Source: Verrucomicrobiia bacterium
Lineage (GTDB): Bacteria; Verrucomicrobiota; Verrucomicrobiia; Palsa-1439
DNA: 64,000 nucleotides
Reading direction: 5' to 3'
Assembly (NCBI GenBank): GCA_035515475.1
Contig: DATJBF010000008.1
Span: 1,899 to 65,898 of the forward strand
Shown here: one piece after another, positions 28,662 to 64,000 of the stretch
How the letters are laid out: every line of letters begins with the position of its first letter
How positions within the stretch are numbered: position 1 is the first letter of the stretch
The notes under the pieces: model-generated
Seen by the model: only the letters and a program-made list of their open reading frames with translations
The model's database searches: none
Told to the model about the DNA's origin: nothing
Translations under genes and position numbers: made by a program

Positions 28662-34436
<5,775 letters not shown>

Positions 34437-37970: not shown

Positions 37971-38015
37971 GACGAGGATGTAACCACAGGCGGGGACGGT
38001 GGCGCCACCGAAAAA

Positions 38016-38552
38016 TCAGTACTTCCACTTGATCGTGCAACCGATGGCGTGGGTGATGGGATTCTCGACCTTCCTGTGCGCGAGCACGGCGTCGATCGCA
38101 CTCCGCAGGTCGTGCGTCTTCACCTTGTCGGGGTGCTGCCAGTTGTCGTCGATGCGCCCGATGTAGCGCACCTGAAACCGGGAATTGAGCAGGAAGGCTT
38201 CCGGCGTGTACTCCGCGCCGTAGGCGCGCGCCACGCGTTGGGTTTCGTCGCGCAGGTACGGGAAATTGATCTGCCGTTCCTTGGCGCGGCGCACCATGTT
38301 GTCGAAACCGTCCTCGGGATACGCCACGGCATCGTTGGCGTTGACGGCGATCAATTGCACGCTCTTCGGGCCGTAGTCGCGCTGGATGCAGATGAGTCGT
38401 TCCTCGTAGGCTTGGACGTACGGGCAGTGATTGCAGGTGAAGAGCACGACCACGATCTTGTTGTCCTTGAACGAACCCAGGGAATAGTCTTTTCCATCGA
38501 CTCCTGGCAGGGTGAAATCCGGCGCACGCTGGCCGATTTCCAACTTCTTCAT
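38016..38552 (-). CDS. Thioredoxin-fold protein (AhpC/TSA/TlpA-like) with CxxC (ORF to 38618; Met starts at ~38552/38561)
   Basis: 'GQRAPDFTLPGVDGKDYSLGSFKDNKIVVVLFTCNHCPYV'. Confidence 0.7.
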   Translation of the reverse strand: MKKLEIGQRAPDFTLPGVDGKDYSLGSFKDNKIVVVLFTCNHCPYVQAYEERLICIQRDYGPKSVQLIAVNANDAVAYPEDGFDNMVRRAKERQINFPYLRDETQRVARAYGAEYTPEAFLLNSRFQVRYIGRIDDNWQHPDKVKTHDLRSAIDAVLAHRKVENPITHAIGCTIKWKY

Positions 38553-38770
38553 GGCGTTCATGACCCAATCCCGATTCCCATGTTGCTTCCCCGAAGTAGT
38601 GAGGCTGCGACTCCCCATAACCTACCAGCGCGGACCGAAACGTCAAGGTCTCGTTCGGTGCCGCGAAAGAGGTTGAGCGGGTCCGCTGATTCTGTTACAC
38701 AGACTCCCATGACCGTGCGGAGTGCAACTTCAGTGCCAGTTGCTCGTTCTCGCCCCGAGGGAAGTTCTGT

Positions 38771-45185: not shown

Positions 45186-45476
45186 TTGGCCAAATTGGTA
45201 GTTGGCGTTCTACAAATTGAACTGTCGATTCCGTCAGCGAACAGCCTGAAGGCTAAGAGGCAGGTTCTCCATAGTCTTAAAGACCGCATTCGTAGGCACT
45301 TCAACGTATCGGTGGCCGAGGTCGGCGAAAACGACTTATGGCGGAGCGCAGTACTAGCAGTAGTCGTGGCAAGCAACGATAAGCGGTTCGCTAACAGGAT
45401 TCTGTCGAAAGTGGTAGATTTCATCGGGGACTCGCATGATATCGTCGTGGACGACTATCAACTCGGTATAATCTGA
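45186..45476 (+). CDS. DUF503 family protein
   Basis: 96 aa, 'LQIELSIPSANSLKAKRQVLHSLKDRIRRHFNVSVAEVGENDLWRSAVLAVVVASND' pattern typical of DUF503. Confidence 0.5.
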   Translation: MAKLVVGVLQIELSIPSANSLKAKRQVLHSLKDRIRRHFNVSVAEVGENDLWRSAVLAVVVASNDKRFANRILSKVVDFIGDSHDIVVDDYQLGII

Positions 45477-45610
45477 CATGTTCAGCACGCAATTCCTGCC
45501 ATGTTAACCTTGATGGGTTACTAGGCCGTAGATAGCTTGACAAAGCTGGGTTGGAAGGCTATTAACATGTTCAATTGACACCGCCACGTTCGCGGTAGGC
45601 TGCATTTCGC

Positions 45611-45626
45611 TGGCTTGGAAGGTGCT
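45611..45626 (+). promoter_or_regulatory. Putative sigma54 (-24/-12) promoter upstream of the bEBP gene, within a 24-nt direct repeat pair (45545-45570 / 45611-45636)
   Basis: cTGGCttggaaggTGCtt: GG and GC separated by the canonical 10 nt; a second, degenerate copy gcTGGgttggaaggctatt lies 67 nt upstream. Confidence 0.35.
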
Positions 45627-45715
45627 TGACATGTCGGGAGCGCTGTCGAGGTGCAGTGTTAACATGGACGGGGCTGGCGATCGCATGGTTTACGCGTAGG
45701 AATGGCACGCTGGGC

Positions 45716-48380: not shown

Positions 48381-49948
48381 GGGCCTCCGTGCGCGATCTC
48401 CTGTCGGGTGTAGACAGCCGCAACGCGGTCCGCGTACGCGAGTCGCCAGTCTGCCCGCAGACCAAGCAGAGTATTCAGCGCGTGGTCGCGCGGCAGAATC
48501 GTCCAACCGATGTGATGGACCCGAAAGACACCCTCCCACTGCGGTTCGGCCTTGTCGACAGTCCGGAAATCCTTGATCAGATTTCCGCCGTAAAAGTCTG
48601 TCCGCCCGTCCATGAACACCCGCCACTCCGGCGCGGCCAGCACCAGGTAGCCACCCCAGCGGCGGTCGTTAAACATCTCTCCCCGTATTGCATCGGGATG
48701 GGCATGGAGAAACTCGACGGCGGCCACTGGAAAACAGTTTGGCAAAATCCCGGCGGTCACAATCGGCGAGCCGCCGAACCATTGAGGTCTTGCTGCTGAG
48801 GCAACAAGCATTGCCACGCAACCGACCGCCAACGCACGTCCATCGGCAATCGCATCCCACTGGCCGACTGCTTCGGATAGCCGCCGACCCAGGCGCGGGA
48901 AAACTCCCTCGGGCGCGGTGTGGATTGAGGCCGTCCAATGTTCGGCCAAGATCGGGGTCAGAACCAGGGCGAGGATGGACGCGTGGCGGACCGAGTAGAG
49001 CGAGGCGCAACCCCAAATGCTCGTCACGACCACATCGCTGGGTCTCAGCCGTGGCCGAGCGATGATCAGCAGTAGTCCGAACACCAGGGCTTGGGCGAGA
49101 AATCCACGCATCCAGAATCCATGGAAGTCGGGCGAGCGGAATTCACTGCTCAGCGCGACGACCTCATGGTGGCGCAGAATGCTGAGAATGTACGCATGAA
49201 GTTTCCAACCGTTGGGGTTGAGGAATGTGGCCAACAAACACGCGCCACCGAGCAGAGTTAGCGCCCGCATCTTGGAGTATTCTTGGATACGGTCCGCGTC
49301 ACGCCCTCGGAGTGCGGCGACGGCGCTGCCGATCCAGAACGCGGCGATCAGGACGAGTCCTCCGAAAAATCCGCCGTGTAGATTTGCCCACACCGCCGAC
49401 AATGGCGGCAGGACCATGAACAGGCGTTTCGCCGACACGCGTCCACAATCAAACGCCCGGAGCTGCCAGAGGAAGATCACGATGAGCACGAGCGTCCAAA
49501 GGTGCGGTCGCGCCAGCCAATGCAGCGAGGTGCCCCACGCTGCCAGGAGCACCAGTACGAGGGAGAGCAACGCGTTGTTCCCTTCGGCCAGGAGCAGCTG
49601 GTATAGCAACCACAGACTTGTTGTGATCAGGGCCGCGGCCAGGAGCACAATCCCATTCCAGCCCAACGCGTTTCCGGCGGCGGCATACAGCACTTGGCTC
49701 AACCATTCCATGGCGATCACGGGTGCGCCCCATCGCGTATGCGAGAACGGATCGCTCCGGATGATCGCGCGATGTCGGATCATCCAGTCCCCCATGCGCC
49801 AATGAAGGCATGAGTCGCCATCGACGTTGATGAGCGCGTAACGCCACTGGCTGAGGTTCAGCGTCAAGAAGATCGTCAGCCACAATACGACGCCCACGCC
49901 TGGCAACCACCAGCGGCGTTGGCGGCGGTTTTCCCCGCGCGTGATCAT
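48377..49948 (-). CDS. GT-C-like polytopic membrane protein, tandem paralog A (ArnT/PMT_2-like first-loop motif, C-terminal periplasmic domain)
   Basis: 'DGDSCLHWRMGDWMIRHRAIIRSDPFSHTRWGAPVIAMEWL', 'NLHGGFF', 'FLNPNGWKL', C-terminal 'MFNDRRWGGYLV...VFMDGRTDFYG'. Confidence 0.55.
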   Translation of the reverse strand: MITRGENRRQRRWWLPGVGVVLWLTIFLTLNLSQWRYALINVDGDSCLHWRMGDWMIRHRAIIRSDPFSHTRWGAPVIAMEWLSQVLYAAAGNALGWNGIVLLAAALITTSLWLLYQLLLAEGNNALLSLVLVLLAAWGTSLHWLARPHLWTLVLIVIFLWQLRAFDCGRVSAKRLFMVLPPLSAVWANLHGGFFGGLVLIAAFWIGSAVAALRGRDADRIQEYSKMRALTLLGGACLLATFLNPNGWKLHAYILSILRHHEVVALSSEFRSPDFHGFWMRGFLAQALVFGLLLIIARPRLRPSDVVVTSIWGCASLYSVRHASILALVLTPILAEHWTASIHTAPEGVFPRLGRRLSEAVGQWDAIADGRALAVGCVAMLVASAARPQWFGGSPIVTAGILPNCFPVAAVEFLHAHPDAIRGEMFNDRRWGGYLVLAAPEWRVFMDGRTDFYGGNLIKDFRTVDKAEPQWEGVFRVHHIGWTILPRDHALNTLLGLRADWRLAYADRVAAVYTRQEIAHGGP

Positions 49949-51522
49949 GGCTTGCGGAGATCGCGTGCGTAGACGATGGCCACTTTATCGGCGTAAACAC
50001 GGTGCCAATCGTCTCGCAACGCGAGCAGGTTGTTCAATGCATGCCCACGCGGCAAAATGGTCCAGCCAACGCGGTACTTCTCCAGCACGGTTTCCCAGTC
50101 GCGATGAACTTGGTTTACCGCGTCGAATTCCCGGATGAGATCCGCCCCGTAGAAGTCGTTGCGTCCGTCAACGAAAACCTTATGTTCGGGCATGGCCAAA
50201 ATGAAATACCCGCCCCAGCCATAGTCATTAAACATCTCACCGTTCACGGCCCGGGGATGCGCGGCGATAAAGCCGGTCGCTGCGACGGGGAAGCGATTGG
50301 AGAGGATGTTGGTAGCTATGAGCGGATCGCCCCCGACGAGTCGGGGCTTGGCCATGACTGCGAGTAGTGCGACCAGGACAACTGCGGTTATTACACGCCC
50401 ATCGGCGGTCCGGTTGATCTGAGTAAGGTTTGCGGACAGCCGGCAATACCGGTCAAGCGCAGGACTTGGGTTTCGGCTCCGCAGTGCAGTCTGCCAGTGC
50501 GCGGCGAGGATGGGCGTCACCATGAGGGCGAAGATGGGGACGTTGCGGGCCGCTAGCAACGCCAGCAACCCCCAAGTGGCGACGATCGCCATGTCCGTCA
50601 CACCAAGTTTTGGTCGCATAATGAGGAGCGTCAGCGCCACCAACGTCAATTCAGCGACAAAGCCGTGTGCGCCGCTCGCATGGAAGTTCGGCGAACGAAA
50701 CTCGTTCGCATACCGGCTGACGAAAGGATCGCGGAGGAACTCCAACACGTGGGCCGGCAGTTTCCAACCGTTCGGGTTGAGGAGCGTGGCCAACATGCAA
50801 GCGAGCCCAAGTGCGGCCAGTACCACCAATCTCCTTCGCGCGGCGAACCGTGCTGTTGGCTCGGCAACAAGAACCGTCACACCGTCTCCCACCAAGAACG
50901 TTCCGGTGACGACGAGGCCCGTGAAGAAGGCGCCGTGCAAGTTCACCCAGAGGATCATGAGAGGCACGAGACTCAAGAACAGCGTTTGCGCGCGCAGGCG
51001 CCCAAGATTGAACCACCGCAGTTGCCAGGCGAACAGGACTGCGAACAAGTGTGTAAACAGGTGGGGACGCGCCAGCCAATGCACCGAGCAAGACCAAGCC
51101 GCCACGAGTATCAGCGCGGTAGAGAGCAAGGGTTCGTTTCCCTCAGCCAGGAGCTGGCGGTGCAGCACGCATAAGCAGGTCGCGATCAACACGGCCGATA
51201 GCAGGACAATGCCATTCCAACCGAACGCGTCCCCCAGGGTGGCGAATGCCACCTCCGCCAGCCACTCCTTGGAAATCAGGGGGGCTCCGTCACGCGTGTG
51301 AGAGAACGCGTCGACTCGAATCACGGCGCGGTGTTGAATCATCCACTGGCCGATCCGCCAGTGCAGGCAGGGGTCGCCGTCGGCGTTGATGAGCACCAGC
51401 CGCCATTGGGTCAGGATCAATCCAAGAAAAAACGCCAGCCAGATGAACTGACTGAACGATGGGAGCCACCAATGCCGCGGCTCGATGACAGTGGGCACGG
51501 AAGCGGACCCGGGGGTGCTCAT
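49945..51522 (-). CDS. GT-C-like polytopic membrane protein, tandem paralog B
   Basis: 'DGDPCLHWRIGQWMIQHRAVIRVDAFSHTRDGAPLISKEWL', 'NLHGAFF', 'LLNPNGWKL', 'MFNDYGWGGYFI...VFVDGRNDFYG'; ATGA overlaps with both neighbours. Confidence 0.55.
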   Translation of the reverse strand: MSTPGSASVPTVIEPRHWWLPSFSQFIWLAFFLGLILTQWRLVLINADGDPCLHWRIGQWMIQHRAVIRVDAFSHTRDGAPLISKEWLAEVAFATLGDAFGWNGIVLLSAVLIATCLCVLHRQLLAEGNEPLLSTALILVAAWSCSVHWLARPHLFTHLFAVLFAWQLRWFNLGRLRAQTLFLSLVPLMILWVNLHGAFFTGLVVTGTFLVGDGVTVLVAEPTARFAARRRLVVLAALGLACMLATLLNPNGWKLPAHVLEFLRDPFVSRYANEFRSPNFHASGAHGFVAELTLVALTLLIMRPKLGVTDMAIVATWGLLALLAARNVPIFALMVTPILAAHWQTALRSRNPSPALDRYCRLSANLTQINRTADGRVITAVVLVALLAVMAKPRLVGGDPLIATNILSNRFPVAATGFIAAHPRAVNGEMFNDYGWGGYFILAMPEHKVFVDGRNDFYGADLIREFDAVNQVHRDWETVLEKYRVGWTILPRGHALNNLLALRDDWHRVYADKVAIVYARDLRKP

Positions 51523-53045
51523 TGTATCTTGTGGAAGATGGTGGCGACTTCGTTAGAGTACGCGAGTTTCCAGTTCGGCAGCAATGCGAGTGCGAGATTC
51601 AGTGGACGGTCGGTTGGCACGAGCGTCCATTCCACCTTGTATTGCTGGAGAACTGCCAGCCAGTTCGTGGTGAGCTGGGAAGTTTCATTGTATTGACGGA
51701 TCAGCGGCTCTCCATAGAAGTCCGTGCGCCCGTCCACAAAAACCCGATGCTCCGGGAGCGCGTACAGCAAGTACCCCCCCCAAATGTATTCATTGAACAT
51801 GTTGCCTTGGAACTGGCCGGGGTGTTGCTTGATGAATTCCACCGCGGCGATCGGCCATTTCTTCGCGGGCATTTCTGTCGGGCGCGAGACGCCGACCAGG
51901 GCGACCGCGGCAATCACCACGACGAGCAACGAGCCACGCGAAATCTCATGGATCTCCCGAAGCCGTCCGGATAAACGCCGCCCCCAGTGGGGCGACGCGT
52001 CCGCCAGAGCGGTGGCGAGAATCGGCGCTGTGAAGATGGCCAGCAACGGAATGTTGCGGCCGGCATACAAGGCTAGGTACGTCCAGCCGATGAGAAGAAT
52101 TCCGGAGGCGGCCGACAAACGCGGTCTCGCCAGCGCCAGCGTGAAGAACGTCAATGCCAACCACGCCAGGAACCCGCGTGAATCGGGCGCATGAAAATCT
52201 GAAGAAGCATATTCCGCCAGCCAGTTCGTCAGATAATCCGAGCGAAGGAACTGCAGATTGTGCAGATGGAGTTCGTAGCCGTTCGGGTTGACCAACGACA
52301 CGCCCGCGCACAAGAGGGCGACGCCGCTGAGAACGGCCAGCTTTCGTCGCGCGGTGGCCCATCTGGTGGCGTCGGCGCGGACAAGGGGCATTTCAATAAG
52401 GGCACCCAGCCAGTACGCGCCCAGCGTGATGAACCCGGCGAGGTAGCCGCCGTGCAGGTTGACCCACAATACCATGAGCCCGGCAAGCGTGATGGCGAGA
52501 CGGCGGGCCGATGCGCCGTGCTCGAAGCGTCGCAACGCGTCGCCCCACAGCGCAGCCAAGAGAAAACTGAACGCGTGTGGTCGGGCCAACCAGTGTGTGC
52601 AGGCGGCCCATGCTGCAGTGAATGCTACAAAGACGGCCACCGCGTGATTGCCCGTCTCGCGCAGCAATTGATGATGTAGGAAGGCGAAGGTCGTGGCGAT
52701 CACCAGCGCGGCGACCACGACCAGCCCGTATAATCCACCAAGGCGGCCGGCAGTCGCGAGGATGATTTCGGAGAGCCATTCCTTGGAGATAATCGGCTGG
52801 CCAAAGCGGGTGTGCGAAAAGATATCAGTGCGAATAATTCGTTTGTGTCGGAGCATCCATTCGCCCACGCGCCAGTGCATACACGCGTCGCCGTCGCTCG
52901 AGACCATCATGACGCGCCACGGTTGCGCAAGAAGGATGAGCAGAATCACAAGCCACAACCATTGGGTCATCGACGGCACGAGCCAATGCCAAAGACGGCG
53001 AGATGGAGACGCGATTCTGGTAGGGCCCTCTGCCAAAGCTGCCAT
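51519..53045 (-). CDS. GT-C-like polytopic membrane protein, tandem paralog C
   Basis: 'DGDACMHWRVGEWMLRHKRIIRTDIFSHTRFGQPIISKEWL', 'NLHGGYL', 'LVNPNGYEL', 'MFNEYIWGGYLL...VFVDGRTDFYG'. Confidence 0.55.
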   Translation of the reverse strand: MAALAEGPTRIASPSRRLWHWLVPSMTQWLWLVILLILLAQPWRVMMVSSDGDACMHWRVGEWMLRHKRIIRTDIFSHTRFGQPIISKEWLSEIILATAGRLGGLYGLVVVAALVIATTFAFLHHQLLRETGNHAVAVFVAFTAAWAACTHWLARPHAFSFLLAALWGDALRRFEHGASARRLAITLAGLMVLWVNLHGGYLAGFITLGAYWLGALIEMPLVRADATRWATARRKLAVLSGVALLCAGVSLVNPNGYELHLHNLQFLRSDYLTNWLAEYASSDFHAPDSRGFLAWLALTFFTLALARPRLSAASGILLIGWTYLALYAGRNIPLLAIFTAPILATALADASPHWGRRLSGRLREIHEISRGSLLVVVIAAVALVGVSRPTEMPAKKWPIAAVEFIKQHPGQFQGNMFNEYIWGGYLLYALPEHRVFVDGRTDFYGEPLIRQYNETSQLTTNWLAVLQQYKVEWTLVPTDRPLNLALALLPNWKLAYSNEVATIFHKIQ

Positions 53046-53077
53046 GGCGCGCAGCTTACGGAGTCATCCGCGAATCT

Positions 53078-55210
53078 TCAATGTTGAACTGCAACGGGCC
53101 GTCGTAAAATCGCAATCAGGTAGAACAGTCCGACGAGAACGACGAGGGCGCGAATCCCGGCCACAAACGAGACGGACTCGAGCAAGCCGCCAACCAATGC
53201 GCCGACGAGATTGGAGCCGAGTGCGCGGGCCTTGTCGGTGCAGGCGGCAAAAGATCGGATGAAGATCAAGCCGGCAAAGAACACCGGCGCGGTCAGAAAT
53301 GCGCTTGCGGCCATGACCTTGGTCGCGCCGGCGAGCGTGTTGAACCTATCGAGGGGAATCAGCGCCAAAGCAGCAACCGTGATCGCCAACCCGGTGACGA
53401 TCAGCCACAGCGGGAGCCGGGACCAGCGCCACGCGACAAAGTTTGAGGCCAGGATCATGACCAGCACTGCTGAAATCACAATGGCGTTGACGACCCACGT
53501 CATGCCGAACAGCAGCGTGGCACGGCTGACCGTCTGTACCTCGAGGAGCAAGAATGCCGCACCCAGCGCAAAGAAATGCCAATCAAACCCCTGCTTGAAG
53601 TCGAATACGCGGCGCTGTGCGAGCATAACAGTACCGAGGATTGCCAGTCCCATCAGGAGATGAAGCTTTGGAATCCTGGCCCGTTCCAAGTACAGATAGG
53701 GCCAGTCGTCGGTCGTGGGGCAAGTTGTTCCTTGGAGATGAAGCGATTCATGGGCGACCACCGAGTGCAGAATTTCATCGGAGATGTTGTTGACGTCGAG
53801 TGGGGCGTTTGCGCAAACGAGCGTGATGCCACCCCCTGTGCCGTACCTCTCGGGGTAGGAAACGCGGTAAGCGATTGGGTTGTGGCCAAAGACCAGGCGA
53901 ACCTCTCCAAACAAACGGTCTGCGATCCAGGGGCGCAGCGCTTCAAAGTTAAGGATGAGCAACCCATCCTCGGCAAGGAGCCGCCGCAATTCCGTAAGCC
54001 CTTCGGTTGTGTAAACATAATGATCAAGGCGGAGATTGGCGTAGGAAGAAGCGAGCGTGTGGGAGTCCAGTAGACCAAGCCAAATGGCGTCGTACGGACC
54101 ACGCGCCTGTTTGTAGAAGGCACGGGCGTCGTTGACGAGCATGTGGACCCGCGGCGAGTCATAGGGATGCTCGGGATGAAGCTGCTTGCCGAGCGCGTAG
54201 ATACGCGGGTCGATCTCGACGCAATCAATCTGATCGACCCCGTGACGGAGTGCCGCGGCAGCATTGTTGCCCGCGCCCGCACCCACAATGAGCATGCGGC
54301 GGATGTGTTGTTTGAAGTGGAACGGGAGGTTGTAGTGACTCCGCTCAGCAGTCTGGAGATCGAAGAGCGCTGGATGCGAGCGGAGGAAATCCGGTGAGAG
54401 ATTGATGAGCGATTGATAAAAGGTGTTGTTCACTTCCAGCCAGTAACCCTGTCGGATGCGGTTCGCACCTTCGCCGACGTACATCGGCCAGATCGTGAGC
54501 TTTTGATACGGCGACCAAATGACGCGCAGCGCACGCGATTGACCGAGTGATACGGTAACGGCCGCAGCAGCGGTCAAGCCAACGGCCAGCCAGGCGCGCC
54601 TCCATCCACACAGCGGAAGCGTGGCCAAGATGGCGGCTGCGACGGCGAGCCAGATTGCGGGTGGAGCCGACCACCAACTGAGTACATTGAACAGCCAAAC
54701 ACCGACCAAGCTGCCAGCGATGTTGATCGAATAGGCGTGAATGACTTGCGGATGCTCTTCCAAGGCGCGGCCGAGAATCTGTCCCATCGGTACGAACGTC
54801 AGCACCAGCAGATACATCAACACCGCCACAATTACTACGGCCCCCGAAACTTCGGGAACCGAGCGACTCCAGAGGACGCCCCAGACGGGCGAATCTTCAA
54901 GACTTCCCAACGCAGTCGTGATCTTGCCCAGATCGAACGACGGCAGTCTGAAGGGATTGCTGACGAGTACCACAAGCAAGAGGAGATTGATTCCACATCG
55001 AGAGATGGATACAGGCTTTGAGGCAAGATAGCAGCCGAGTCCGACGCCAAAGAAGCAAACTACGAGTACCAGATTGCCAAGATAGGCGAAGATGCGAATC
55101 TCCGTCCCGATCCAGCGAATCAGCACGAGTTCCAAGTACAGAATCAGGGCGCTGACGGTGAAGATTTCAAAATCGCGTCGGAGAAGCGTGTCATCACACA
55201 GGTCGCACAT
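53078..55210 (-). CDS. Membrane-embedded spermidine-synthase-fold protein (polyamine aminopropyltransferase-like domain flanked by TM segments; 'fused membrane/SpeE-like' family); ORF to 55345
   Basis: N-terminal ~7 TM, central 'RMLIVGAGAGNNAAAALRHGVDQIDCVEIDPRIYALGKQ...VNDARAFYKQARGPYDAIWLGLLD' SpeE/AdoMet-fold motif, C-terminal ~5 TM. Confidence 0.65.
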   Translation of the reverse strand: MCDLCDDTLLRRDFEIFTVSALILYLELVLIRWIGTEIRIFAYLGNLVLVVCFFGVGLGCYLASKPVSISRCGINLLLLVVLVSNPFRLPSFDLGKITTALGSLEDSPVWGVLWSRSVPEVSGAVVIVAVLMYLLVLTFVPMGQILGRALEEHPQVIHAYSINIAGSLVGVWLFNVLSWWSAPPAIWLAVAAAILATLPLCGWRRAWLAVGLTAAAAVTVSLGQSRALRVIWSPYQKLTIWPMYVGEGANRIRQGYWLEVNNTFYQSLINLSPDFLRSHPALFDLQTAERSHYNLPFHFKQHIRRMLIVGAGAGNNAAAALRHGVDQIDCVEIDPRIYALGKQLHPEHPYDSPRVHMLVNDARAFYKQARGPYDAIWLGLLDSHTLASSYANLRLDHYVYTTEGLTELRRLLAEDGLLILNFEALRPWIADRLFGEVRLVFGHNPIAYRVSYPERYGTGGGITLVCANAPLDVNNISDEILHSVVAHESLHLQGTTCPTTDDWPYLYLERARIPKLHLLMGLAILGTVMLAQRRVFDFKQGFDWHFFALGAAFLLLEVQTVSRATLLFGMTWVVNAIVISAVLVMILASNFVAWRWSRLPLWLIVTGLAITVAALALIPLDRFNTLAGATKVMAASAFLTAPVFFAGLIFIRSFAACTDKARALGSNLVGALVGGLLESVSFVAGIRALVVLVGLFYLIAILRRPVAVQH

Positions 55211-56736
55211 GAGGGGGTGATTCAAGCAGAGGTCTTCGGTGGCTGCAAACAAACTTTCAAGGTCGGGACAATCTGTTTTGCGCTGGCTTGTGGTTGTTCG
55301 CGCCCAGAACGCCACCCCCGAGGTTCGGCGGCGAACGAGGGCCATACGAGCCGTAGCCGAATCCCGTTAAGCCTCGTGCGGTGAGTCCGGCTGGTGATGG
55401 AAGCAACGCATGCTCGCTCCGGCGGCGTCATCGGCTACGACGTTTTGAACTAGAGCCGACCCATCAAGTCCGCTAGTGGAGAGCAAACCGTAACGGCAGC
55501 CATGAATTGGTTACGGGGCGGGACCGTCTGTAGCACGGCGGACGGCGGCTTGGGCCGTGAGGTGTAGCGTTGCCATTCCATCGCGCAATTGCTCGACGAG
55601 ATTCGAGAGGACCAAGTGACAAGATGGCTGGGGTGGACAGGAGATCTCCAAGGGCTGGCGAGACGGTGCAGCCAGGCGATCGCTGGGCGGGACTGGAGCT
55701 CCTTCTCGTGGCGCGGGCGCTACAAATCCGGTTCCACAGCAGGTTTGTCGACCACTGGAATCGCGCCGAGTCCTCTACAACCATCGGCGAGCACACACTG
55801 TGGCACTGCGTCGGTCCCACATGCCGGACTGCTTTCTTTGCGTCATGCCGGGGCGGTTGGTGAACGTTTTCGTGGCTGTCTTTTGCCGTATGGCTTAGTG
55901 CTCAACACGGAGCTATTGGCACACGCGCTTATCAGGAGGCTGCGAATGAAGAGTGGTCCTATCGATCTCTGCAAATTATAGTGACGCCAATGCTTCTTGG
56001 AAACCCCTGTAAACAAGGGCAAAAAAACATCGTAGGGTGTCACCCAATTATGCAGCCCTCAATAGGAGCAATTGGAACGTGGCACATGCGGAGGTGTTGC
56101 GGGCGCTGGCGCCATGGGATGGGCGATAACGATGGGGACGGCAATGGCTTTGATGATGCAGCCGGGACAGGTGACGGGTGATTCACTGGGGTGGATCATG
56201 CTGGCGGCTGTTGTCACGAGCCACCTGCAGAAGTCCGCTATATTTGGTAAGATAACGACCATCGTGTGCCTTATTGATGCGGCGGTATTTCCGGTTTCGC
56301 TACGCTCGTGGGACAGTACTTTCTTCCATGTAAGGCGTACGGCGCGCGAAGTTGGGGAGCACGATCAGCAACCGGCTCAGATGGTCTATGCGGTCTGCCA
56401 CCAATTGGACCCGAAAGAAGTGGCGATTTGCCATGCGCACGAGTCCTTACCGTTGGGATCGAGGCATCCGCAACCATGCCTGCCCAAGTCCGAACAGTAC
56501 CAACTGGTTGGCGATCCTGTGATGCCGTCCCCCGCGGACACACCAATGATTGGGAATATAAGGCAACCGACTGAAATTCGTTCGCGGAATCGAGCTCACG
56601 GGAAGCGAATGCTGGCGCTGGTTGTTTCGCGCGGCACATCGCCCAAGGATTGCACTCCGCGCTTTGACCTGCGCCACACCAGGCCGTCGCCAGGCGGTTG
56701 GGTCTGTGTGAATACGATACCGGGCAGGACGATGAG

Positions 56737-58368
56737 ATGAGCGGTGGCGAGACAAAACTCGAGCGGCGTGATTGGATGATGGCAGGGGTCTTTCTTACCG
56801 TGGCATTGATCTTGCGAATTCCATTCCGCAGCCATCTGGCATATCACTGGGACGGGGCGCAGTTCGCGCTCGCCATCGAGCACTACGACATGCGAATCAG
56901 CCAGCCGCAGCCACCGGGGTACTTCCTGTATGTGATGCTCGGGAGGTTGGTGAAGCTTTTCGTCGGCGAGCCACACACCAGTCTGATTTGGATAAGCGTC
57001 TTTGCCGGGGCGGCGTTGACGGGGATTGGGTTTCTGTTGGCAACGGCGATGTTTGGTAGGGGTGTCGGCGTAGCAACGGCAATGATCCTTGCGACGAGCC
57101 CGGTGTGTTGGTTTCATAGTGAAGTTGCGTTGACCTCGATTGTTGACGCGGCCTTGGTGACGGCAACGGTACTGGTATGTTGGACGGCCATGCAGCGCGG
57201 CGGGAGATGGCGTGATGTGCTCTGGATGTCAGTATTGTTTGCCGCCGTTGCCGGCGTGCGCCAGCAAAGTGGAGCGATCTTGGCCCCACTGTGGTGTTAC
57301 ACGTTGCTGAGGTTTCGCCATCCACGTCGGTCGAAGATGTTGGGCGCGGCGGTACTGACGGGACTGTTTATCGCACTCTGGCTTGTTCCGATGGTGCGAA
57401 CCACGGGCGGAATTGCGCAGTACCTGGGCGTGCTGCGAGCCAAGGGCCGATTCGACGCCCCACGAACGCCGTGGGGTAGCGGGGGGATACAGGCGCTCTT
57501 AACGAACGTGAGCGTTATCGGACGGGTGTGTTGGGTGGGATTGCTGTTAGCCGCCCTGATTTCGACAGGTGAGTTGGTTCACTGGGTCTTCAGAGAGCGG
57601 CCAGAGGCGAAGAGGAGATTGTACAGTGAGTATGCGGAGCAGATTCGCGTTCTCACATTGTGGATTGCTCCGATGCTGGCATTCTGGCTAGCCATGTACG
57701 TCACGACGCCGGGGTATGTACTGTGCTTTTTCCCTGGCCTCACGATCGTAGCAGGAGTTGCCATCCGCCGGTGCGCTGGCCGACTCAACCGATCCTCTTA
57801 CGGACGCAGCGTTACGGCCGGGCAGTGGTCGGGCGCCGTCACAGCGTGGCTGACTCTCGGCTTCGTAGTGGGAGCGAACACAGTTGTTTTTGTATGGGAG
57901 CCGAGACTCTCGGTTCCGCTGTTGGCGGACTTACCTCTTACCGCGGTGGAGATTCAGCGGCACGACCGGCAACTCACAGAATGCTTTCGGGTGATCCGAG
58001 AGAAGTTTCGGCCGGAAGATGTGGTCATATACCACAGCGATCAGTTTTTCTACTGGGGGTTTCGTCAGTTCCAATATTATCTCACCGAGTATCGCAACGT
58101 ACTGTTGACGCCTGACGCTTCCTTGGCAGGTGGTCTGCGACGAAAGCAGTGGGTCGGAGAACAGCGGCAGACGATCTTCGCAGATGCAACGTATGATCTA
58201 CCCTGTGAATGGCGTTTATTGGTCGTTCCTCCCGGGCAATCGATCCATATCTTTGGTAGGTACTTCGATGTATCGACGGCAAAGTTAGTACGCACATCGC
58301 GGCCAAAGTTGTACTTAGTTCGAGACCAAGTAGAGTCGACTGTACAGAAACTGAACAACCCCCCGTAA
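56737..58368 (+). CDS. GT-C family membrane glycosyltransferase (ArnT/PMT-like, GT39/83-type first loop); ORF from 56698
   Basis: 'AYHWDGAQFALAIEHYDMRISQPQPPGYFLYVML' matches the DE..Y..A..EM...PPL.YW-type loop; ~11 TM plus C-terminal soluble domain. Confidence 0.55.
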   Translation: MSGGETKLERRDWMMAGVFLTVALILRIPFRSHLAYHWDGAQFALAIEHYDMRISQPQPPGYFLYVMLGRLVKLFVGEPHTSLIWISVFAGAALTGIGFLLATAMFGRGVGVATAMILATSPVCWFHSEVALTSIVDAALVTATVLVCWTAMQRGGRWRDVLWMSVLFAAVAGVRQQSGAILAPLWCYTLLRFRHPRRSKMLGAAVLTGLFIALWLVPMVRTTGGIAQYLGVLRAKGRFDAPRTPWGSGGIQALLTNVSVIGRVCWVGLLLAALISTGELVHWVFRERPEAKRRLYSEYAEQIRVLTLWIAPMLAFWLAMYVTTPGYVLCFFPGLTIVAGVAIRRCAGRLNRSSYGRSVTAGQWSGAVTAWLTLGFVVGANTVVFVWEPRLSVPLLADLPLTAVEIQRHDRQLTECFRVIREKFRPEDVVIYHSDQFFYWGFRQFQYYLTEYRNVLLTPDASLAGGLRRKQWVGEQRQTIFADATYDLPCEWRLLVVPPGQSIHIFGRYFDVSTAKLVRTSRPKLYLVRDQVESTVQKLNNPP

Positions 58369-58530
58369 CATGTGAAGGAGATTGGGCATCAGAGCGCGAC
58401 TGGTGAGAAACCTTGAGAATAGTGTGGGAGAAATATGGTTTGGGGATTGACGGGATAACAGGTTAGCGAGTAAATGGTTACAGCAAGACGGTGCAGTTCA
58501 AGGCCACAAGGGGGACCCGGCGGACGACGA

Positions 58531-58545
58531 TGGCACGTAAGCTGC
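58531..58545 (+). promoter_or_regulatory. Sigma54-dependent promoter (-24/-12) upstream of flp
   Basis: TGGCACGtaagCTGCc vs consensus TGGCACG-N4-TTGCW: GG/GC spacing exact, 1 mismatch; ~70 nt upstream of the flp start. Confidence 0.6.
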
Positions 58546-58618
58546 CTTTAGTGCTTCGTGTAAACGTGGAATGAGTCGGGTGATAAGAACGTGGAAGCCA
58601 GATGAAGGAGGTGAAACG

Positions 58619-58798
58619 ATGAAGAAGTCTCTCCGAAAGCTGTATCGTGGACTGAACGGACGGAAGGGCCAGAGCTTGGTTGAGTATGCGCTGATCTTGG
58701 CGCTGATCGCTGTCGTGGCGATCTTGGTGCTCCAAGGTATCGGCGGCCGAGTGAATAACACACTTGAGAAGGTTAACAGTAATCTCCCCGCGAGTTAG
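58619..58798 (+). CDS. flp: Flp family type IVb pilin (ORF from 58571; Met start 58619)
   Basis: 'MKKSLRKLYRGLNGRKGQSLVEYALILALIAVVAILVL' with Flp motif (G/QSLVEYALI...). Confidence 0.85.
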   Translation: MKKSLRKLYRGLNGRKGQSLVEYALILALIAVVAILVLQGIGGRVNNTLEKVNSNLPAS

Positions 58799-58830
58799 CA
58801 GTGATTCACGGGGGACGGCAAACATGGCTT

Positions 58831-58870
58831 GGGGGTGGAGTGGGCACGGAGCCCCTTCACCCCCTGAGTT
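58831..58870 (+). terminator. GC-rich hairpin downstream of flp (possible intrinsic terminator/attenuator)
   Basis: gggggtg...(loop)...caccccc followed by tgagtttgac; sits between the abundant-pilin gene and the assembly genes. Confidence 0.3.
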
Positions 58871-59257
58871 TGACAGAACCAGTGGCCGTTTCTTAAAGCG
58901 GGGCCGGGCACTTGGGAAGGTCATCGTGACATCCGTCGGTCGTGACTGTAGATAAACGGCACGACGGCAAATCACTAGTTGAGGGGGCTATGGCGTTCAA
59001 ACAGACTCAGATCATTTGCAGTGGAGTCTGGTGGCAGAATCAACCGAGTTTGCGCATGGCCGAAATCGTCGGTCACGTTTGTAGGAGATGGCGCGTGCGA
59101 GAATGCATCCGACCATCGGTGCGGGTTTGGCGGCGGAACGTTGGCCTGTGGTTTGCTGTCTATCAGCGATCCGAAGCCAACAATGTAGTTGCTTTTTTGG
59201 ACAAGAACGAGCTATATCACTGAAAGCTAGGAAGTAGAGTCGAACAAGGAGGACTCA

Positions 59258-60097
59258 ATGGCTAAAAAACCTGGTGCAGGTGGGATCATTTTGGCGGCTG
59301 TCGTTTTGGGTCTTATCGCGGTGTACTTGATCTGGAATCTAGAACGACAGCGCGACAGGCAAGCCAAGAAGAATTGGACGCCGGTTGTGGTTGCCCTTCA
59401 GGATATTCCTGCCCGTTCGAAAGTTACGCGCGAGATGGTGACGCTGACCAGCTATCCGAAGGAATTGATTGCAGCGGGGGCCATTACCGACCCAAAGGAA
59501 GTCGAAGGACGTATCGCACTTTCCCGCATCCGGGCGAAGGATCAAATACGGTCTTCCGATCTGGTTGCTGAGGGCCAGGGACCCAGCTTGGCATACGAAA
59601 TTCCCAAAGGGATGCGCGCCATTGCCATCCAAGCGGGGGAAGTGATGGCCGTCGGCACGGCAGTCAAGCCGGGTGATCGCGTGGACATTCTGGCGACGTA
59701 TCAGAATCCTGTCACGCGACAAGAGACGACCCAGATGATTTTGCAGAACGTTCTTGTGCTGGCGGTCAATAAAGGCCAGACCGACACGCAGGGCAATGTG
59801 GGCGCCAACACTTCCATGACGCTGGCCGTCAAACCCGAGGAGGCTGAGTTGCTGACGGCGGCTGATCGTATCGGCGCGTTGCGAGTGGCGCTACGTCCCG
59901 TGCAGGACAAGACTATCATTCCGAGCACTGGCGTGGAGGCTCGCGATTTCTTAGGCAGCAGGACCTTCGAGATGTCCGCGGAGGCGCCGGACGCTGCGAA
60001 GGCCACGCCAATCATTATCAATCCGCCGTCAAGTCATCAGCGGCCTGAGGTCAAAATATACCGAGGCACCCAGGTGCAGACGGTGACGACCGAATAG
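59258..60097 (+). CDS. cpaB: Flp pilus assembly protein CpaB/RcpC (SAF domain)
   Basis: N-terminal TM, 'VVVALQDIPARSKVTREMV', 'GMRAIAIQAGEVMAVGTAVKPGDRVDIL' CpaB-like. Confidence 0.8.
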   Translation: MAKKPGAGGIILAAVVLGLIAVYLIWNLERQRDRQAKKNWTPVVVALQDIPARSKVTREMVTLTSYPKELIAAGAITDPKEVEGRIALSRIRAKDQIRSSDLVAEGQGPSLAYEIPKGMRAIAIQAGEVMAVGTAVKPGDRVDILATYQNPVTRQETTQMILQNVLVLAVNKGQTDTQGNVGANTSMTLAVKPEEAELLTAADRIGALRVALRPVQDKTIIPSTGVEARDFLGSRTFEMSAEAPDAAKATPIIINPPSSHQRPEVKIYRGTQVQTVTTE

Positions 60098-60140
60098 GGG
60101 CCGGAAGAGAATCTCCAAAGAACGAAAGGACGACACAATA

Positions 60141-61679
60141 ATGAAGAAGATTCAATGGGGAGGAATTGGGGTTATCGTGATGGTGCTTGTATTCGGAATC
60201 CTGCTTGTCCCGCCGGCGCAGGCGGACACCATCCAGGTGAACGTTGGGGAAGCGGTGACGATTCCGGGTGAGAACGTTTCAAAGATTGCCATTGCCGACC
60301 CGGCAGTAGCTGACGTAGTGCCGCTCTCAGACAAGGAATTGAGCGTCATCGGCAAGAAGGCAGGCGTCACCACGCTGACGATTGTGAAGAGCGATGGTTC
60401 AGCAACTCAGTTGCACCGCATCGAGGTGGGAAATGATGCTGTTGCTTCCACAATCCGCCAGATGATAGGCCAGTCGGGCGTCAACGTGCGCGCCGTGGGC
60501 GACACGCTGGTGCTGGATGGCCGCGTGGAAAACGAACTCCAAGCTCAACGGGCGGCGCAGATCGCATCTGCGTATAAGGACAAGGTCCTCAACCTCATTG
60601 AGGTCGAGAAGCCGCGGCAGATCAGGATCCGCACCCGGGTCGCCGAGGTGAATAGCGCGGCACTCAAGAATGTCGGGTTCCAATGGCTCGGCTCAGGTGG
60701 TGAGGTGAGGTATGCATTGGATTTCGCCGGGGGTGGATCGATTATCCACGGGCTCGTGCAACCGGAAAGCGCCGGTGGGCCGACCGTCACTCAGCCCAAC
60801 ACGGTGGATATTGGCGCGGATGTAATTCTGCAATTGCTGATCACCAAGAACTTCGCGCGGCTGCTGTCGGAACCGACTCTCGTAACCTTGAGTGGCAAGG
60901 AAGCCAGCTTCCTTGTCGGCGAGGAGGTTCCCATCGTGCAGCAGTTGCCGCAATCGTTTACCGTTGAGTTCAAGGAGGTCGGCGTGCGGATGAACATCAA
61001 ACCCACTGCCGATAGTCAGAACCAGATTAACACAGTGTTGCACGCGGAAGTCAGCCAGGTGCTAGGCACCGGGGCGTTTGGCATTCCGATCATTGGCTCC
61101 AAGAAGGCCGATACCACCCTTCAGGTCAAGGATGGACAGACGGTGGTCATCGGCGGGCTTTTGGAAAACAACATCAACACCGACACGCTGAGAAAAGTAC
61201 CGTGGTTGGCGGACATTCCGCTATTCGGCTACCTGTTTCGAAACAGGCAATTCCAGCAGTCCCAGCGCGAAGTCTTGTTCTTCATGACACCTGAGATTGT
61301 GAAGAATGTTGACGCGGCGACGGCGGGAGCAGCCCAGACGCTTTTGATGAAGGAATGGGTTCGCACCAAGTCCAAAGAAAAGCTGTTGAAGGTGACACCT
61401 CTTGACGAACTGTTCCCCGCGGGCATGCAGCGCGGCTCTTCGAACGAGAAGGCGCCCGCTGAGAAGCCATCCCCGGTCGCGCAACCGGCCGCTAAACCGG
61501 CACCCGTCTCGAAGCCGGCGCCGCAACCAGCGCCGGCCCCGAAAGCTGCGGCGGCCAAGCCTGCGGCAGTTGAGCAATCGGCGGCGGTTGAGAAACCGGC
61601 TCCGAAGAAGCCTGCCCCAGCGGTTCAGACGGAGGAACCGACGACGAACTTTTCGCCGGCGCGACCTGCGGGACAATGA
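60141..61679 (+). CDS. cpaC: Flp pilus secretin CpaC/RcpA with C-terminal Pro/Ala-rich low-complexity tail
   Basis: Signal peptide; N-terminal pilus-formation/BON-like region; secretin C-domain 'VPWLADIPLFGYLFRNRQFQQSQREVLFFMTPEIV'; tail 'PAAKPAPVSKPAPQPAPAPKAAAAKPAA'. Confidence 0.85.
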   Translation: MKKIQWGGIGVIVMVLVFGILLVPPAQADTIQVNVGEAVTIPGENVSKIAIADPAVADVVPLSDKELSVIGKKAGVTTLTIVKSDGSATQLHRIEVGNDAVASTIRQMIGQSGVNVRAVGDTLVLDGRVENELQAQRAAQIASAYKDKVLNLIEVEKPRQIRIRTRVAEVNSAALKNVGFQWLGSGGEVRYALDFAGGGSIIHGLVQPESAGGPTVTQPNTVDIGADVILQLLITKNFARLLSEPTLVTLSGKEASFLVGEEVPIVQQLPQSFTVEFKEVGVRMNIKPTADSQNQINTVLHAEVSQVLGTGAFGIPIIGSKKADTTLQVKDGQTVVIGGLLENNINTDTLRKVPWLADIPLFGYLFRNRQFQQSQREVLFFMTPEIVKNVDAATAGAAQTLLMKEWVRTKSKEKLLKVTPLDELFPAGMQRGSSNEKAPAEKPSPVAQPAAKPAPVSKPAPQPAPAPKAAAAKPAAVEQSAAVEKPAPKKPAPAVQTEEPTTNFSPARPAGQ

Positions 61680-61728
61680 TATCAGATTGAGTTGAGATTA
61701 ACCGGTATTCTGGGACGCGCCGGAAGGA

Positions 61729-62976
61729 GTGCCGGCGGGAGTGATGCAGACAACAGATATGGAGTCGATAACTGTCATTATCGCCGAGAATGAATTGAGC
61801 GAGCGGGAGAAACTCAAGGGCTTGCTCAGTGGCGAGAAGGACATTCAGGTTGTAGGGGAAGCTCGCGACGGCAAGGAATGTCTCGATCTGGTTACTCGCC
61901 AGCGTCCCAGCGTTGTCCTGATCAAGGAGGACCTGCCGGTGGTCAATGGCCTGACCGCCGCCGAGCAAATTGCTACGGAAATGCCTGAAGTCGGGGTCAT
62001 TTTGCTCTTGGGCGGCTCGGAAGGCGAGGAAGTCTGGCACAAGATGCTGCGGGCGGGAATCAAGGAGTTTATCACGCGACCCCTCACGGCGGATCGTGTC
62101 TTGGAGGAAGTGCGCAAAGTGGCCGCCATCCAAGCTAAGGCAGCGAAGCGCACGGCGACCACCGCCGGCGCGAGCGTGGCCGAGACCAAGGGCCCCAAAC
62201 GTCAGATCGTCACCGTGACCGGCCCGCGCGGCGGTTGTGGCAAGACGGTCATTGCCGCAAATCTGGCGGTGACCTTGGCCAACAGCAGTGAGAAGGTCGC
62301 CCTCGTGGACTTGAATCTGTGGGGCGGCGATGTTGCGATGCTCTTGGACATCAGCCCGAAGCGCACGTTGGGTGACTTGCTGCCGGGCTTCGGTGGGATT
62401 GACTACGACGTTGTTGACAGCGTGATGAACAAGCACGCTTCCGGAGTTTCGGTCTTGGCTGCGCCGTTGACAGGCACTTTCGATGGTTCGACGCTGTCAC
62501 GCTACATGGTACAGAGCATCTTGGAAGCCTTGCGCGAACACTACGAATTCACGGTCGTTGACACCGGCTACGCCAACCTGGAGTCCACGCTAGCGGCGAT
62601 GGATTACTCGGATTTGATTCTCGTCGTGGTGGGAATGGACCTGCCGCGGCTGCGCGATGGGAAACTGTATTTGAAGAACTTGATAGCCGCCAATTATCCC
62701 AAGGAAAAGATTCGCGTGGTCGTCAACCGCGCGGGCAACTCGAAGGAGATCTCGTCGTCAGAGGTCGAAGCGATTCTGGAATTCTCGGTGACGGCCCAAA
62801 TTCCAAGCGATGATACGCTGGTAGGCTCGTCGGTGAACCTGGGGCAGGCGTTCGTGGCGTCGAGTCCGAACAAACCGGTTTCCAGGGCGATTTTCAATCT
62901 GGCCGAAAAACTTGGGCCGATGGCTGTCGCCGCGGGCAAGAAGCGCCCGGGACGATGGTTTTCGTTTATGCAATGA
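61729..62976 (+). CDS. cpaE: CpaE/TadZ: atypical (pseudo-)receiver domain + MinD/ParA-like ATPase
   Basis: Receiver-like 'ITVIIAENE...PSVVLIKEDLPVVNG' (Lys at acceptor position); deviant Walker A 'GPRGGCGKTVIAANLA'. Confidence 0.8.
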   Translation: MPAGVMQTTDMESITVIIAENELSEREKLKGLLSGEKDIQVVGEARDGKECLDLVTRQRPSVVLIKEDLPVVNGLTAAEQIATEMPEVGVILLLGGSEGEEVWHKMLRAGIKEFITRPLTADRVLEEVRKVAAIQAKAAKRTATTAGASVAETKGPKRQIVTVTGPRGGCGKTVIAANLAVTLANSSEKVALVDLNLWGGDVAMLLDISPKRTLGDLLPGFGGIDYDVVDSVMNKHASGVSVLAAPLTGTFDGSTLSRYMVQSILEALREHYEFTVVDTGYANLESTLAAMDYSDLILVVVGMDLPRLRDGKLYLKNLIAANYPKEKIRVVVNRAGNSKEISSSEVEAILEFSVTAQIPSDDTLVGSSVNLGQAFVASSPNKPVSRAIFNLAEKLGPMAVAAGKKRPGRWFSFMQ

Positions 62977-63005
62977 AAACGACCTAGGAGGAGGTGCAGC
63001 AGATT

Positions 63006-64000
63006 ATGGCTTCCACTCCGGAGATCAGCACGCAGTTGTATGTGGAGTCCAAGAACGCAATCCTTGCGTACTTGGTTCAAAACATAGACCAGAAACTCTT
63101 GGAAAAGGGCGATGAAGCGTTGTTGCGTCGCCGGGTCGAGGAGTTGGTCGAAGAAAAACTCCGCTCTGAGAAGCTGCCGTTCTCACGGCAGATGCGCAAT
63201 CGTCTCGTATCCGACATGGCCGACGAAATTCTCGGCTTCGGCCCCATCGAACCCCTCCTGCGCGACCCGACTGTCACAGAAGTCATGATCAATCGCCCCG
63301 ACCAAGTGTACTGCGAACGTTTTGGCAAGCTCGAGTTGACGGACATTCAGTTTCGCGACTACGAGCACATCCGTCATGTCATCGACAAGATTGTAACCCC
63401 GCTCGGTCGGCGCGTCGATGAGTCCAGCCCGATGGTGGACGCGCGTTTGCCCGACGGCTCGCGCGTCAACGCGATCGTGCCTCCACTGTCCCTCAATGGC
63501 CCCGTGCTGACGATTCGCAAGTTCTCGGTCGACCCGTATACGGTGGAGGACCTGATCGGGTTCGGCACCATCACGCAGGGGATGGCAGCGTTCTTGGCCG
63601 CGTGCGTGAAGGTGAAGCTGAACATTATCGTGTCGGGCGGCTCCGGTGCCGGTAAGACGACGCTGTTGAACGTGCTGTCCTCGTTCATTCCTGAGGGCGA
63701 GCGTGTTGTCACTGTTGAAGACGCCGCAGAATTGAAGCTGCACCAACCGCATGTGGTGCGGCTCGAGTCTCGCCCGCCCAATATCGAGGGCAAGGGCGAA
63801 GTCAAGATTCGCGACTTGGTCCGCAACTGTCTCCGTATGCGCCCCGACCGCATCGTCGTCGGTGAAGTGCGTGGGGGCGAAGCGCTGGACATGTTGCAGG
63901 CGATGAACACGGGTCACGAAGGTTCGATTTCGACGATTCACGCCAACACGCCGCGCGACGCGCTGGCACGCCTGGAAACGATGGTGATGATGTCGGGCAT
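63006..64000 (+). CDS. cpaF: Type II/IV secretion ATPase CpaF/TadA (5' part; continues beyond window, so absent from ORF track)
   Basis: Translation from ATG 63006: '...VMINRPDQVY...NIIVSGGSGAGKTTLLN...DRIVVGEVRGGEALDMLQAMNTGHEGSISTIHANTP' (Walker A, Asp box, His box). Confidence 0.85.
   Translation, partial: MASTPEISTQLYVESKNAILAYLVQNIDQKLLEKGDEALLRRRVEELVEEKLRSEKLPFSRQMRNRLVSDMADEILGFGPIEPLLRDPTVTEVMINRPDQVYCERFGKLELTDIQFRDYEHIRHVIDKIVTPLGRRVDESSPMVDARLPDGSRVNAIVPPLSLNGPVLTIRKFSVDPYTVEDLIGFGTITQGMAAFLAACVKVKLNIIVSGGSGAGKTTLLNVLSSFIPEGERVVTVEDAAELKLHQPHVVRLESRPPNIEGKGEVKIRDLVRNCLRMRPDRIVVGEVRGGEALDMLQAMNTGHEGSISTIHANTPRDALARLETMVMMSG

Follow-up and report, generated by a model that had tools for sequence, protein, structure and literature searches.

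A conserved -24/-12 element and a helically phased dyad upstream of the Flp pilin gene point to sigma-54 control of a Tad pilus locus in uncultured Verrucomicrobiia

Introduction

How might an Flp pilin gene be turned on in bacteria whose lineages are known here solely through metagenomes of soil, peat and bog? The question is raised by a stretch of DNA of 64,000 nucleotides (nt) from a Verrucomicrobiia bacterium (GenBank assembly GCA_035515475.1, contig DATJBF010000008.1, positions 1,899 to 65,898 of the forward strand; hereafter the window), which encodes an Flp pilin (flp), genes of the Tad pilus machinery and an NtrC-family bacterial enhancer-binding protein (bEBP). A first-pass annotation, made from the letters alone, had proposed that flp is driven by a near-consensus sigma-54 promoter. 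RpoN is common in Verrucomicrobia (PMC3372290, PMC12316311) and a survey published in 2025 records sigma-54 promoters in Verrucomicrobiia (PMC12316311); in the literature that we searched, this survey included, we found no description of how Tad pili are regulated in Verrucomicrobiota. Comparing the window with related loci, we conclude that flp probably has its own enhancer-dependent sigma-54 promoter.

Results

A conserved -24/-12 element precedes flp

Using CpaB homologues and a scan of species-representative genomes, we found that the window groups with Verrucomicrobiia that have not been cultured and come from metagenomes of soil, peat and bog; the nearest CpaB is 89% identical to its own. 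The comparative loci that we gathered have CpaB proteins of 49% to 81% identity, Flp is strongly conserved across them, and the statistics on the flp promoter were computed on 26 distinct orthologous loci. Since these loci are all related, their numbers do not count independent events; the argument is that the boxes are invariant where the flanks are saturated with changes. What was observed in these sequences is the motifs, how they are conserved, spaced and phased, the synteny and the domain content.

On the + strand, TGGCACGTAAGCTGC (58531-58545) shows an exact GG-N10-GC spacing and a single mismatch to TGGCACG-N4-TTGC, with CTGC replacing TTGC, and its distance to the flp ATG (58619) is 73 nt, all of which agrees with the near-consensus, exactly spaced motif about 70 nt upstream of flp that the first-pass annotation had described. 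At 58531-58546, TGGCACGTAAGCTGCC fits 10 of the 12 specified sigma-54 positions (TGGCAC-N5-TTGCW). Counts in the window show no enrichment of the motif: at up to one mismatch it was counted 2 times against 2.21 expected, and the 10/12 scoring scheme requiring GG and GC gave 6 matches against 5.1 expected. Considering that such window statistics are uninformative, the case for a flp promoter must rest on position and conservation.

TGGCA[C/T]-N5-nTGC was found 84-98 nt upstream of the flp ATG in all loci with an identifiable flp (26/26 distinct), and in a MAFFT alignment that was built blind to the motif it appeared as an island of identity amid unalignable DNA. Information content over the 26 loci reaches 2.0 bits at each base of TGGCA and of TGC and 1.6 bits at C/T, the ten specified positions averaging 1.89 bits, against 0.99 bits in the spacer and a mean of 0.32 bits in the flanks (104 columns). 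A functionless chance occurrence would fit the window alone, in which matches are as many as in shuffled sequence, but it is hardly credible when the same position recurs in 26 loci with randomised flanks, and these comparative data refute it.

Conservation by itself cannot name the binding factor, and the window happens to read GGCA-N7-TGCC, a short inverted repeat, as might be expected if the block was the operator of another DNA-binding protein, or else part of a sigma-70 or extracytoplasmic function (ECF) promoter. We consider this very improbable. The base that follows GC and that completes the palindrome is unconstrained (0.2 bits at +15), indicating that the symmetry seen in the window is accidental and that the element, whose spacer also varies, is asymmetric, like a -24/-12 promoter and unlike a palindromic operator. 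In addition, the positions that do not vary coincide exactly with the sigma-54 consensus, GG-to-GC being fixed at 10 nt, a sigma-70 promoter scan of 58000-59400 found no -35/-10-like pair, an enhancer-like dyad stands at a helically phased distance (see below) and a bEBP with a GAFTGA loop is encoded next door. The invariant boxes, the lack of a sigma-70-like promoter and the phased dyad altogether support the sigma-54 promoter that had been proposed for flp.

Transcription is predicted to start near 58557, which would give a leader of about 62 nt; from this assumed +1, RNAalifold found no consensus structure for the leader. Several relatives (e.g. locus L005, 1917-1945) have a short stem, such as CCCGAC...GTCGGG, at or just before the predicted start; with a start 1-3 nt upstream of our estimate, this stem could serve to stabilise the 5' end as a terminal hairpin.

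A candidate enhancer lies upstream of flp at phased distances

All related loci have, some 190 bp before the -24 box, a 17-bp dyad with the consensus TGTYCAG-N3-CTGRACA, whose 7-3-7 layout is that of a classical NtrC site. In the window, this candidate upstream activating sequence (UAS) is TGTACAGAAACTGAACA, which overlaps the final codons of the upstream open reading frame (ORF; 56698-58368) and is centred at about -208 relative to the predicted flp start. A search of 575 kb of clade sequence with the loose pattern TGT.CA-N5-TG.ACA gave one match per locus, upstream of flp, and a single stray match in L014. Dyad and -24 box are separated by 190-194 bp in 21 loci, by 181-183 bp in the other 5, and these two classes (~192 and ~182 bp) are one helical turn apart, which is the behaviour expected if a bound activator must face the promoter.

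At the second candidate UAS site (Table 1), relatives read ACATGTYCAGA..TTGG[G/T]CA, which contains a third TGTYCAG half-site, and in 19 of 22 loci CATGT stands at -162 to -165 relative to the -24 T, and once at -153. The A/T-rich block that follows might, as a speculation, be a site for an architectural protein resembling integration host factor (IHF); the A/T-rich blocks match the IHF consensus, which is that of E. coli, only loosely.

The linked bEBP is the best candidate activator

The bEBP that the first-pass annotation had reported in the window is borne out by its domain content (Table 1) and by an intact GAFTGA loop, and its start codon (ATG 45716) is backed by the N-termini of orthologues. 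It scores under every NCBIfam equivalog cut-off and is therefore no named orthologue. Across the clade, orthologues are 65-94% identical, and a metagenome scan with this protein recovered 4 orthologues in 80 loci, the remainder being paralogues at ~40% identity.

Compared with the NtrC receiver 1dc7, the receiver domain of the protein (45716-46100) has a Glu at D54, the phospho-acceptor, and a Pro at D11 of the acidic pocket. Of 108 orthologues, 58 have a Glu and 50 an Asp at position 54; position 11 is highly variable, and the conserved Thr and Lys are retained. In the window and eight relatives, the neighbours of the gene are fabI, DUF503 and glycosyltransferase-like genes, and no histidine kinase gene was found near it in these 9 loci, so that two defining features of a two-component response regulator are missing: the phospho-acceptor with its acidic pocket, and an adjacent kinase. 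Considering the receiver Glu and the lack of a nearby kinase, this bEBP probably works without phosphorylation, and how much of it is expressed, or else a non-phosphoryl input, probably determines its activity.

The gene order is conserved and runs from fabI, (DUF503) and the bEBP gene through two to six genes for GT87/PMT_2-like membrane proteins of ~500 amino acids (aa) to flp and cpaB: it was seen in L040, L042, L124, L125 and L041/L022 and partly in L123, and contigs of equal length among the CpaB homologues and the bEBP orthologues hint at further cases. The bEBP-tad synteny covers at least six genomes. In the distant relative L025, the bEBP gene is divergent from, and immediately adjacent to, two flp genes, and the intergenic DNA contains GGTGTTCA-N6-TGAACACC plus TGGCATACACCATGCA 82 nt before flp. 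This linkage to tad makes the bEBP the best candidate for the protein that would bind the flp enhancer.

The promoter might also be sigma-54 dependent and yet be activated by another bEBP encoded elsewhere, with the neighbouring one controlling, for example, the glycosyltransferase-like array. Families of bEBPs are large, with hundreds of paralogues at ~40% identity, 11.5 kb and 2-6 unrelated genes separate this gene from flp, and a search for the full 17-bp dyad gave none upstream of the bEBP gene. We nevertheless judge such a remote activator rather unlikely, since the linkage has been kept in those genomes despite the changing number of intervening genes, since in L025 the dyad stands between the two adjacent genes, since the regulatory regions of the bEBP gene and of flp have an ACATGTYCA core in common, and since no second bEBP was found within 6-10 kb of the tad loci.

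Two side observations concern the genes around this activator. In L025 (3974-5928), the two tandem flp genes are followed by TadE-like and TadG-like genes before cpaB, in what is a more compact circuit. Between the bEBP gene and flp, the window (47139-58368), as well as L040, L041, L042 and L123-L125, has an array of paralogous polytopic membrane proteins of ~500 aa (GT87, weak PMT_2/GT39-like, most without a Pfam match), in which copy number (2-6) and orientation vary; a 755-aa protein with a spermine-synthase-like domain is also encoded there in the window (53078-55345). The proteins of this array may glycosylate the pilin or the envelope.

The bEBP gene has a conserved -24/-12-like element of its own

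A weaker -24/-12-like element within a direct repeat had been noted upstream of the bEBP gene, and we could confirm both parts: TGGCTTGGAAGGTGCT is contained in a 26-nt direct repeat (45545-45570 / 45609-45634, 81% identical), and TGGC-N8-TGCT is invariant in 11 orthologous bEBP upstream regions, ~105 nt before the start, several relatives having an element closer to the consensus (TTGCT). In these orthologous regions, ACATGT(T/C)(C/A) also recurs three to five times at conserved offsets; the motif, which includes the half-site TGTYCAG found in the flp dyad, is rare elsewhere in clade sequence. As for UAS inverted repeats that the two upstream regions might share, the ACATGTYC(A)/TGTYCAG core is common to both, whereas the full dyad belongs to flp only. 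Together with the conserved element and the tad synteny, this core supports the autoregulated sigma-54 cascade that the first-pass annotation had suggested, with the bEBP as a putative activator of its own gene.

The invariant TTGACA and the TATTAA that follows it 17 nt later could tentatively be a weak sigma-70 promoter, at which a sigma-70 scan made no call. The bEBP leader has extra repeats as well, TGCCATGTTAACC... (45497-45517) and TGCAGTGTTAACATGG (45652-45672), with a perfect 10-nt inverted pair, CCATGTTAAC / GTTAACATGG (45499-45508 / 45658-45667), 149 nt apart.

flp is probably transcribed separately from the machinery genes

The Flp protein has a G/QSLVEY processing motif, and its gene is followed by the GC-rich hairpin that the first-pass annotation had proposed to set the stoichiometry of pilin and machinery. 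The hairpin itself is real: it is kept in all relatives with compensatory changes in 7 of 13 pairs, and a 111-nt segment that contains it folds at -49.6 kcal/mol (z = -3.6). Many relatives have TTGGCTTTTC after it, whereas the window merely reads GAGTTTG, and a terminator scan of 58000-59400 made no call at the hairpin (weak T-tract). The hairpin probably marks the 3' end of the transcript, as a terminator or as a stabiliser. An Rfam scan of the same region gave nothing meaningful, its lone match being a snoRNA at E = 0.25. Between the flp stop codon and the hairpin, relatives (e.g. L006, 5284-5310) have a conserved CTTGGCAACTAAAACATGCCCAAG, a small inverted repeat containing ACATG that is absent in that form from the window.

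A second sigma-54-type element, TGGCCTGTGGTTTGCT, precedes cpaB. A similar distal element was found in L001, L014, L016 and L021 (5 loci with the window), while in 17 other loci the distal copy has decayed and RGGCACAGCATYTGCT is present instead, at -50 to -61 relative to the cpaB ATG, so that a GG-N10-GC element, proximal or distal, is kept before cpaB in every locus examined. These two alternative positions between subclades suggest an apparent promoter turnover. In the flp-cpaB spacer, whose length ranges from 262 to 780 nt among loci, relatives have no consistently conserved small ORFs or TGTYCAG half-sites. Since cpaB has a sigma-54-type element of its own, flp is probably a separate, likely monocistronic unit and not the first gene of one attenuated operon.

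The machinery genes could instead be expressed mainly by read-through from the flp promoter, with the hairpin as a leaky attenuator that sets the excess of pilin: all genes are on the same strand, and termination could be partial given the weak U-tract after the hairpin of the window. This arrangement is conceivable but doubtful, considering the element before cpaB in every locus (17 proximal, 5 distal including the window) and the variable length of the spacer. The earlier proposal thus needs one correction: the ratio of pilin to machinery is more likely set by two promoters and a terminator or stabiliser than by attenuated read-through alone.

Downstream, cpaF continues past the end of the window, and the relative L039 holds a full tad operon (CpaB/RcpC, secretin, TadZ/CpaE, TadA/CpaF, TadB/C). 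No prepilin peptidase (TadV/CpaA) was found among the called genes of L039, L040, L124 and L125, and it may be encoded elsewhere in the genome.

Other features of the window

The best match to the sigma-54 consensus in the window is TGGCACTGAAGTTGCA (38723-38738, - strand, 11/12), located in an intergenic gap ~105-160 nt upstream of a gene for an AhpC/TSA-family redoxin (38618..38016, - strand), and it could be a third sigma-54 promoter. The + strand ORF that overlaps it (37701-38774) has no Pfam match and is probably no gene; no homologue of the AhpC/TSA-like protein was found in the related loci that we compared. Further upstream, a 1924-aa ORF (28662-34436, + strand) combines several ABC ATPase modules with UvrA interaction and DNA-binding domains; at about twice the normal length of UvrA, it looks like a fused or duplicated UvrA-like protein.

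Table 1. Coordinates of the features of the flp-tad region and of the linked bEBP gene in the window
Feature	Position	Strand	Basis or remark
ACATGT(T/C)(C/G) motifs, three	45476, 45565, 45629 (region 45476-45636)	+	bEBP upstream region
TTGACA, then TATTAA 17 nt later	45537-45542, 45560-45565	+	TTGACA invariant; TAYKAR in relatives
-24/-12-like element TGGCTTGGAAGGTGCT, candidate autoregulated promoter	45611-45626	+	conserved in orthologues
NtrC-family bEBP gene	45716-47107	+	Response_reg, Sigma54_activat, AAA_lid_14, HTH_8 (Pfam)
Candidate UAS site 1, 17-bp dyad TGTACAGAAACTGAACA	58341-58357	+	best match in window
Candidate UAS site 2 ACATGTGAAGGAGATTGGGCA	58368-58388	+	partly diverged; ~27 bp downstream of dyad
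A/T-rich block, partly conserved	58455-58484	+	alignment; TTAA-N4-TT...TTGC in relatives; midway between UAS and promoter
Sigma-54-type -24/-12 promoter element TGGCACGTAAGCTGCC	58531-58546	+	motif, spacing, conservation
Shine-Dalgarno AAGGAGGTGA	58605-58614	+	near-invariant among relatives
flp, Flp/Fap pilin gene, 59 aa	58619-58798	+	Pfam Flp_Fap E = 3.9e-8; orthologues
GC-rich hairpin GGGGGTGGAG...CTTCACCCCC	58831-58864	+	conserved, covarying
Second sigma-54-type element TGGCCTGTGGTTTGCT	59142-59157	+	~100 nt upstream of cpaB start codon
Tad machinery genes	59258-64000	+	cpaB, cpaC, cpaE/tadZ, cpaF; window proteins
cpaB (RcpC)	59258-60097	+	Pfam search
cpaC, secretin	60141-61679	+	Pfam search
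cpaE/tadZ, ATPase	61729-62976	+	Pfam search

Discussion

From the sequences we infer sigma-54 binding, the start site, an activator bound to the dyad, autoregulation and termination, which would fit together as follows. Sigma-54 RNA polymerase would sit on TGGCAC-N5-CTGC (58531-58545) as a closed complex, and an NtrC-family activator, most likely the syntenic bEBP, would occupy the dyad and the adjacent ACATGT site ~185-210 bp upstream. Looping would bring the activator to the polymerase, where ATP and the GAFTGA loop would open the promoter. Transcription from near 58557 would then yield a short flp mRNA whose ribosome-binding site is strong and which would end at, or be stabilised by, the hairpin. 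The assembly genes from cpaB onward would be transcribed from their separate sigma-54-type promoter, and the activator gene from its own (45611-45626), creating a positive feedback. Taken to its end, this scheme would be an orphan, kinase-independent bEBP that activates its own sigma-54 promoter, making a self-reinforcing and possibly bistable switch that controls pilin and machinery through two promoters; we regard this extended version as unlikely, and advance it only tentatively.

Several points weigh against the scheme. The motif count within the window alone is at chance level, and the -12 box of flp is CTGC rather than TTGC. An RpoN domain search found none in the window or in 1.43 Mb of related loci, and the presence of rpoN in the source genome is assumed. 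Lacking a full dyad at the bEBP gene, the pairing of this activator with the flp enhancer is circumstantial, and this is the main gap for autoregulation. The hairpin after flp has no canonical U-tract in the window. Finally, the proximal cpaB element lies in a block that is wholly conserved within its subclade, where conservation says less.

If the scheme is true, the variable glycosyltransferase array may join the pilus programme, for example in the glycosylation of the pilin or of the surface. The locus would offer a concrete and testable regulatory map for adhesion pili, from promoter, enhancer and activator to transcript ends, and would illustrate, by comparison among relatives, the helical phasing of an enhancer with its promoter as well as the turnover of sigma-54 promoters.

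How does this circuit compare with known ones? In PprA/PprB of Pseudomonas aeruginosa flp-tad and in the ECA0785 two-component system of Pectobacterium, a dedicated regulator beside tad also turns on flp, and no sigma-54 dependence of either was reported in the literature that we searched. In Pectobacterium, the sigma-54 label is given only to VasH, and quantitative PCR showed no VasH-dependent change of flp/tad (PMC3767616).

In the PilS/PilR systems that control pilA in Pseudomonas, Myxococcus and Geobacter, the major pilin gene likewise has a -24/-12 promoter with an NtrC-type activator at upstream sites and forms a separate, highly expressed unit. Such control of type IVa pilins by PilR and sigma-54 is long established. 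Here, however, the pilin is an Flp (type IVc/Tad) pilin, there is no PilS-like kinase and a sigma-54-type element precedes the machinery operon too.

The likeness to glnAp2 and NtrC is in the 17-bp 7-3-7 dyad enhancer upstream of a -24/-12 promoter, in the regulator gene behind a sigma-54 promoter and in a possible upstream sigma-70 promoter that overlaps activator-type sites. The target function and the site sequence differ, the enhancer is farther away (~-208) and a Glu replaces the phospho-acceptor Asp; the D54E mutant of NtrC is reportedly partly constitutive.

The closest parallels in kind come from Desulfobacterota. In Desulfovibrio vulgaris, DAP-chip assays showed binding of the sigma-54 response regulator DVU2114 upstream of Flp-type pilin genes and of tad genes (PMC3333781, PMC4641369), sigma-54 promoters have been predicted there (PMC3333781, PMC4641369, PMC12363597), and the counterpart of DVU2114 in O. 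alaskensis G20, Dde_2355, adjoins an Flp pilin gene (PMC12363597). As here, a GAFTGA activator of the NtrC family is linked to an Flp pilin gene and a cpa/tad operon. The present locus belongs to another phylum, Verrucomicrobiota; a variable array of membrane glycosyltransferase-like proteins separates activator and flp, no partner kinase is nearby, the receiver has a Glu or a degenerate acidic pocket, and the binding motif differs. Considering that sigma-54 control of pilins, those of the Flp type included, is established, the general understanding of sigma-54 or of Tad pili is unchanged: the flp circuit, well supported by comparative genomics, reads as an ordinary example of known pilus switching, of interest for its particulars, namely a phased enhancer, two or three sigma-54 promoters per circuit, promoter turnover and a kinase-less activator with Asp or Glu at its receiver.

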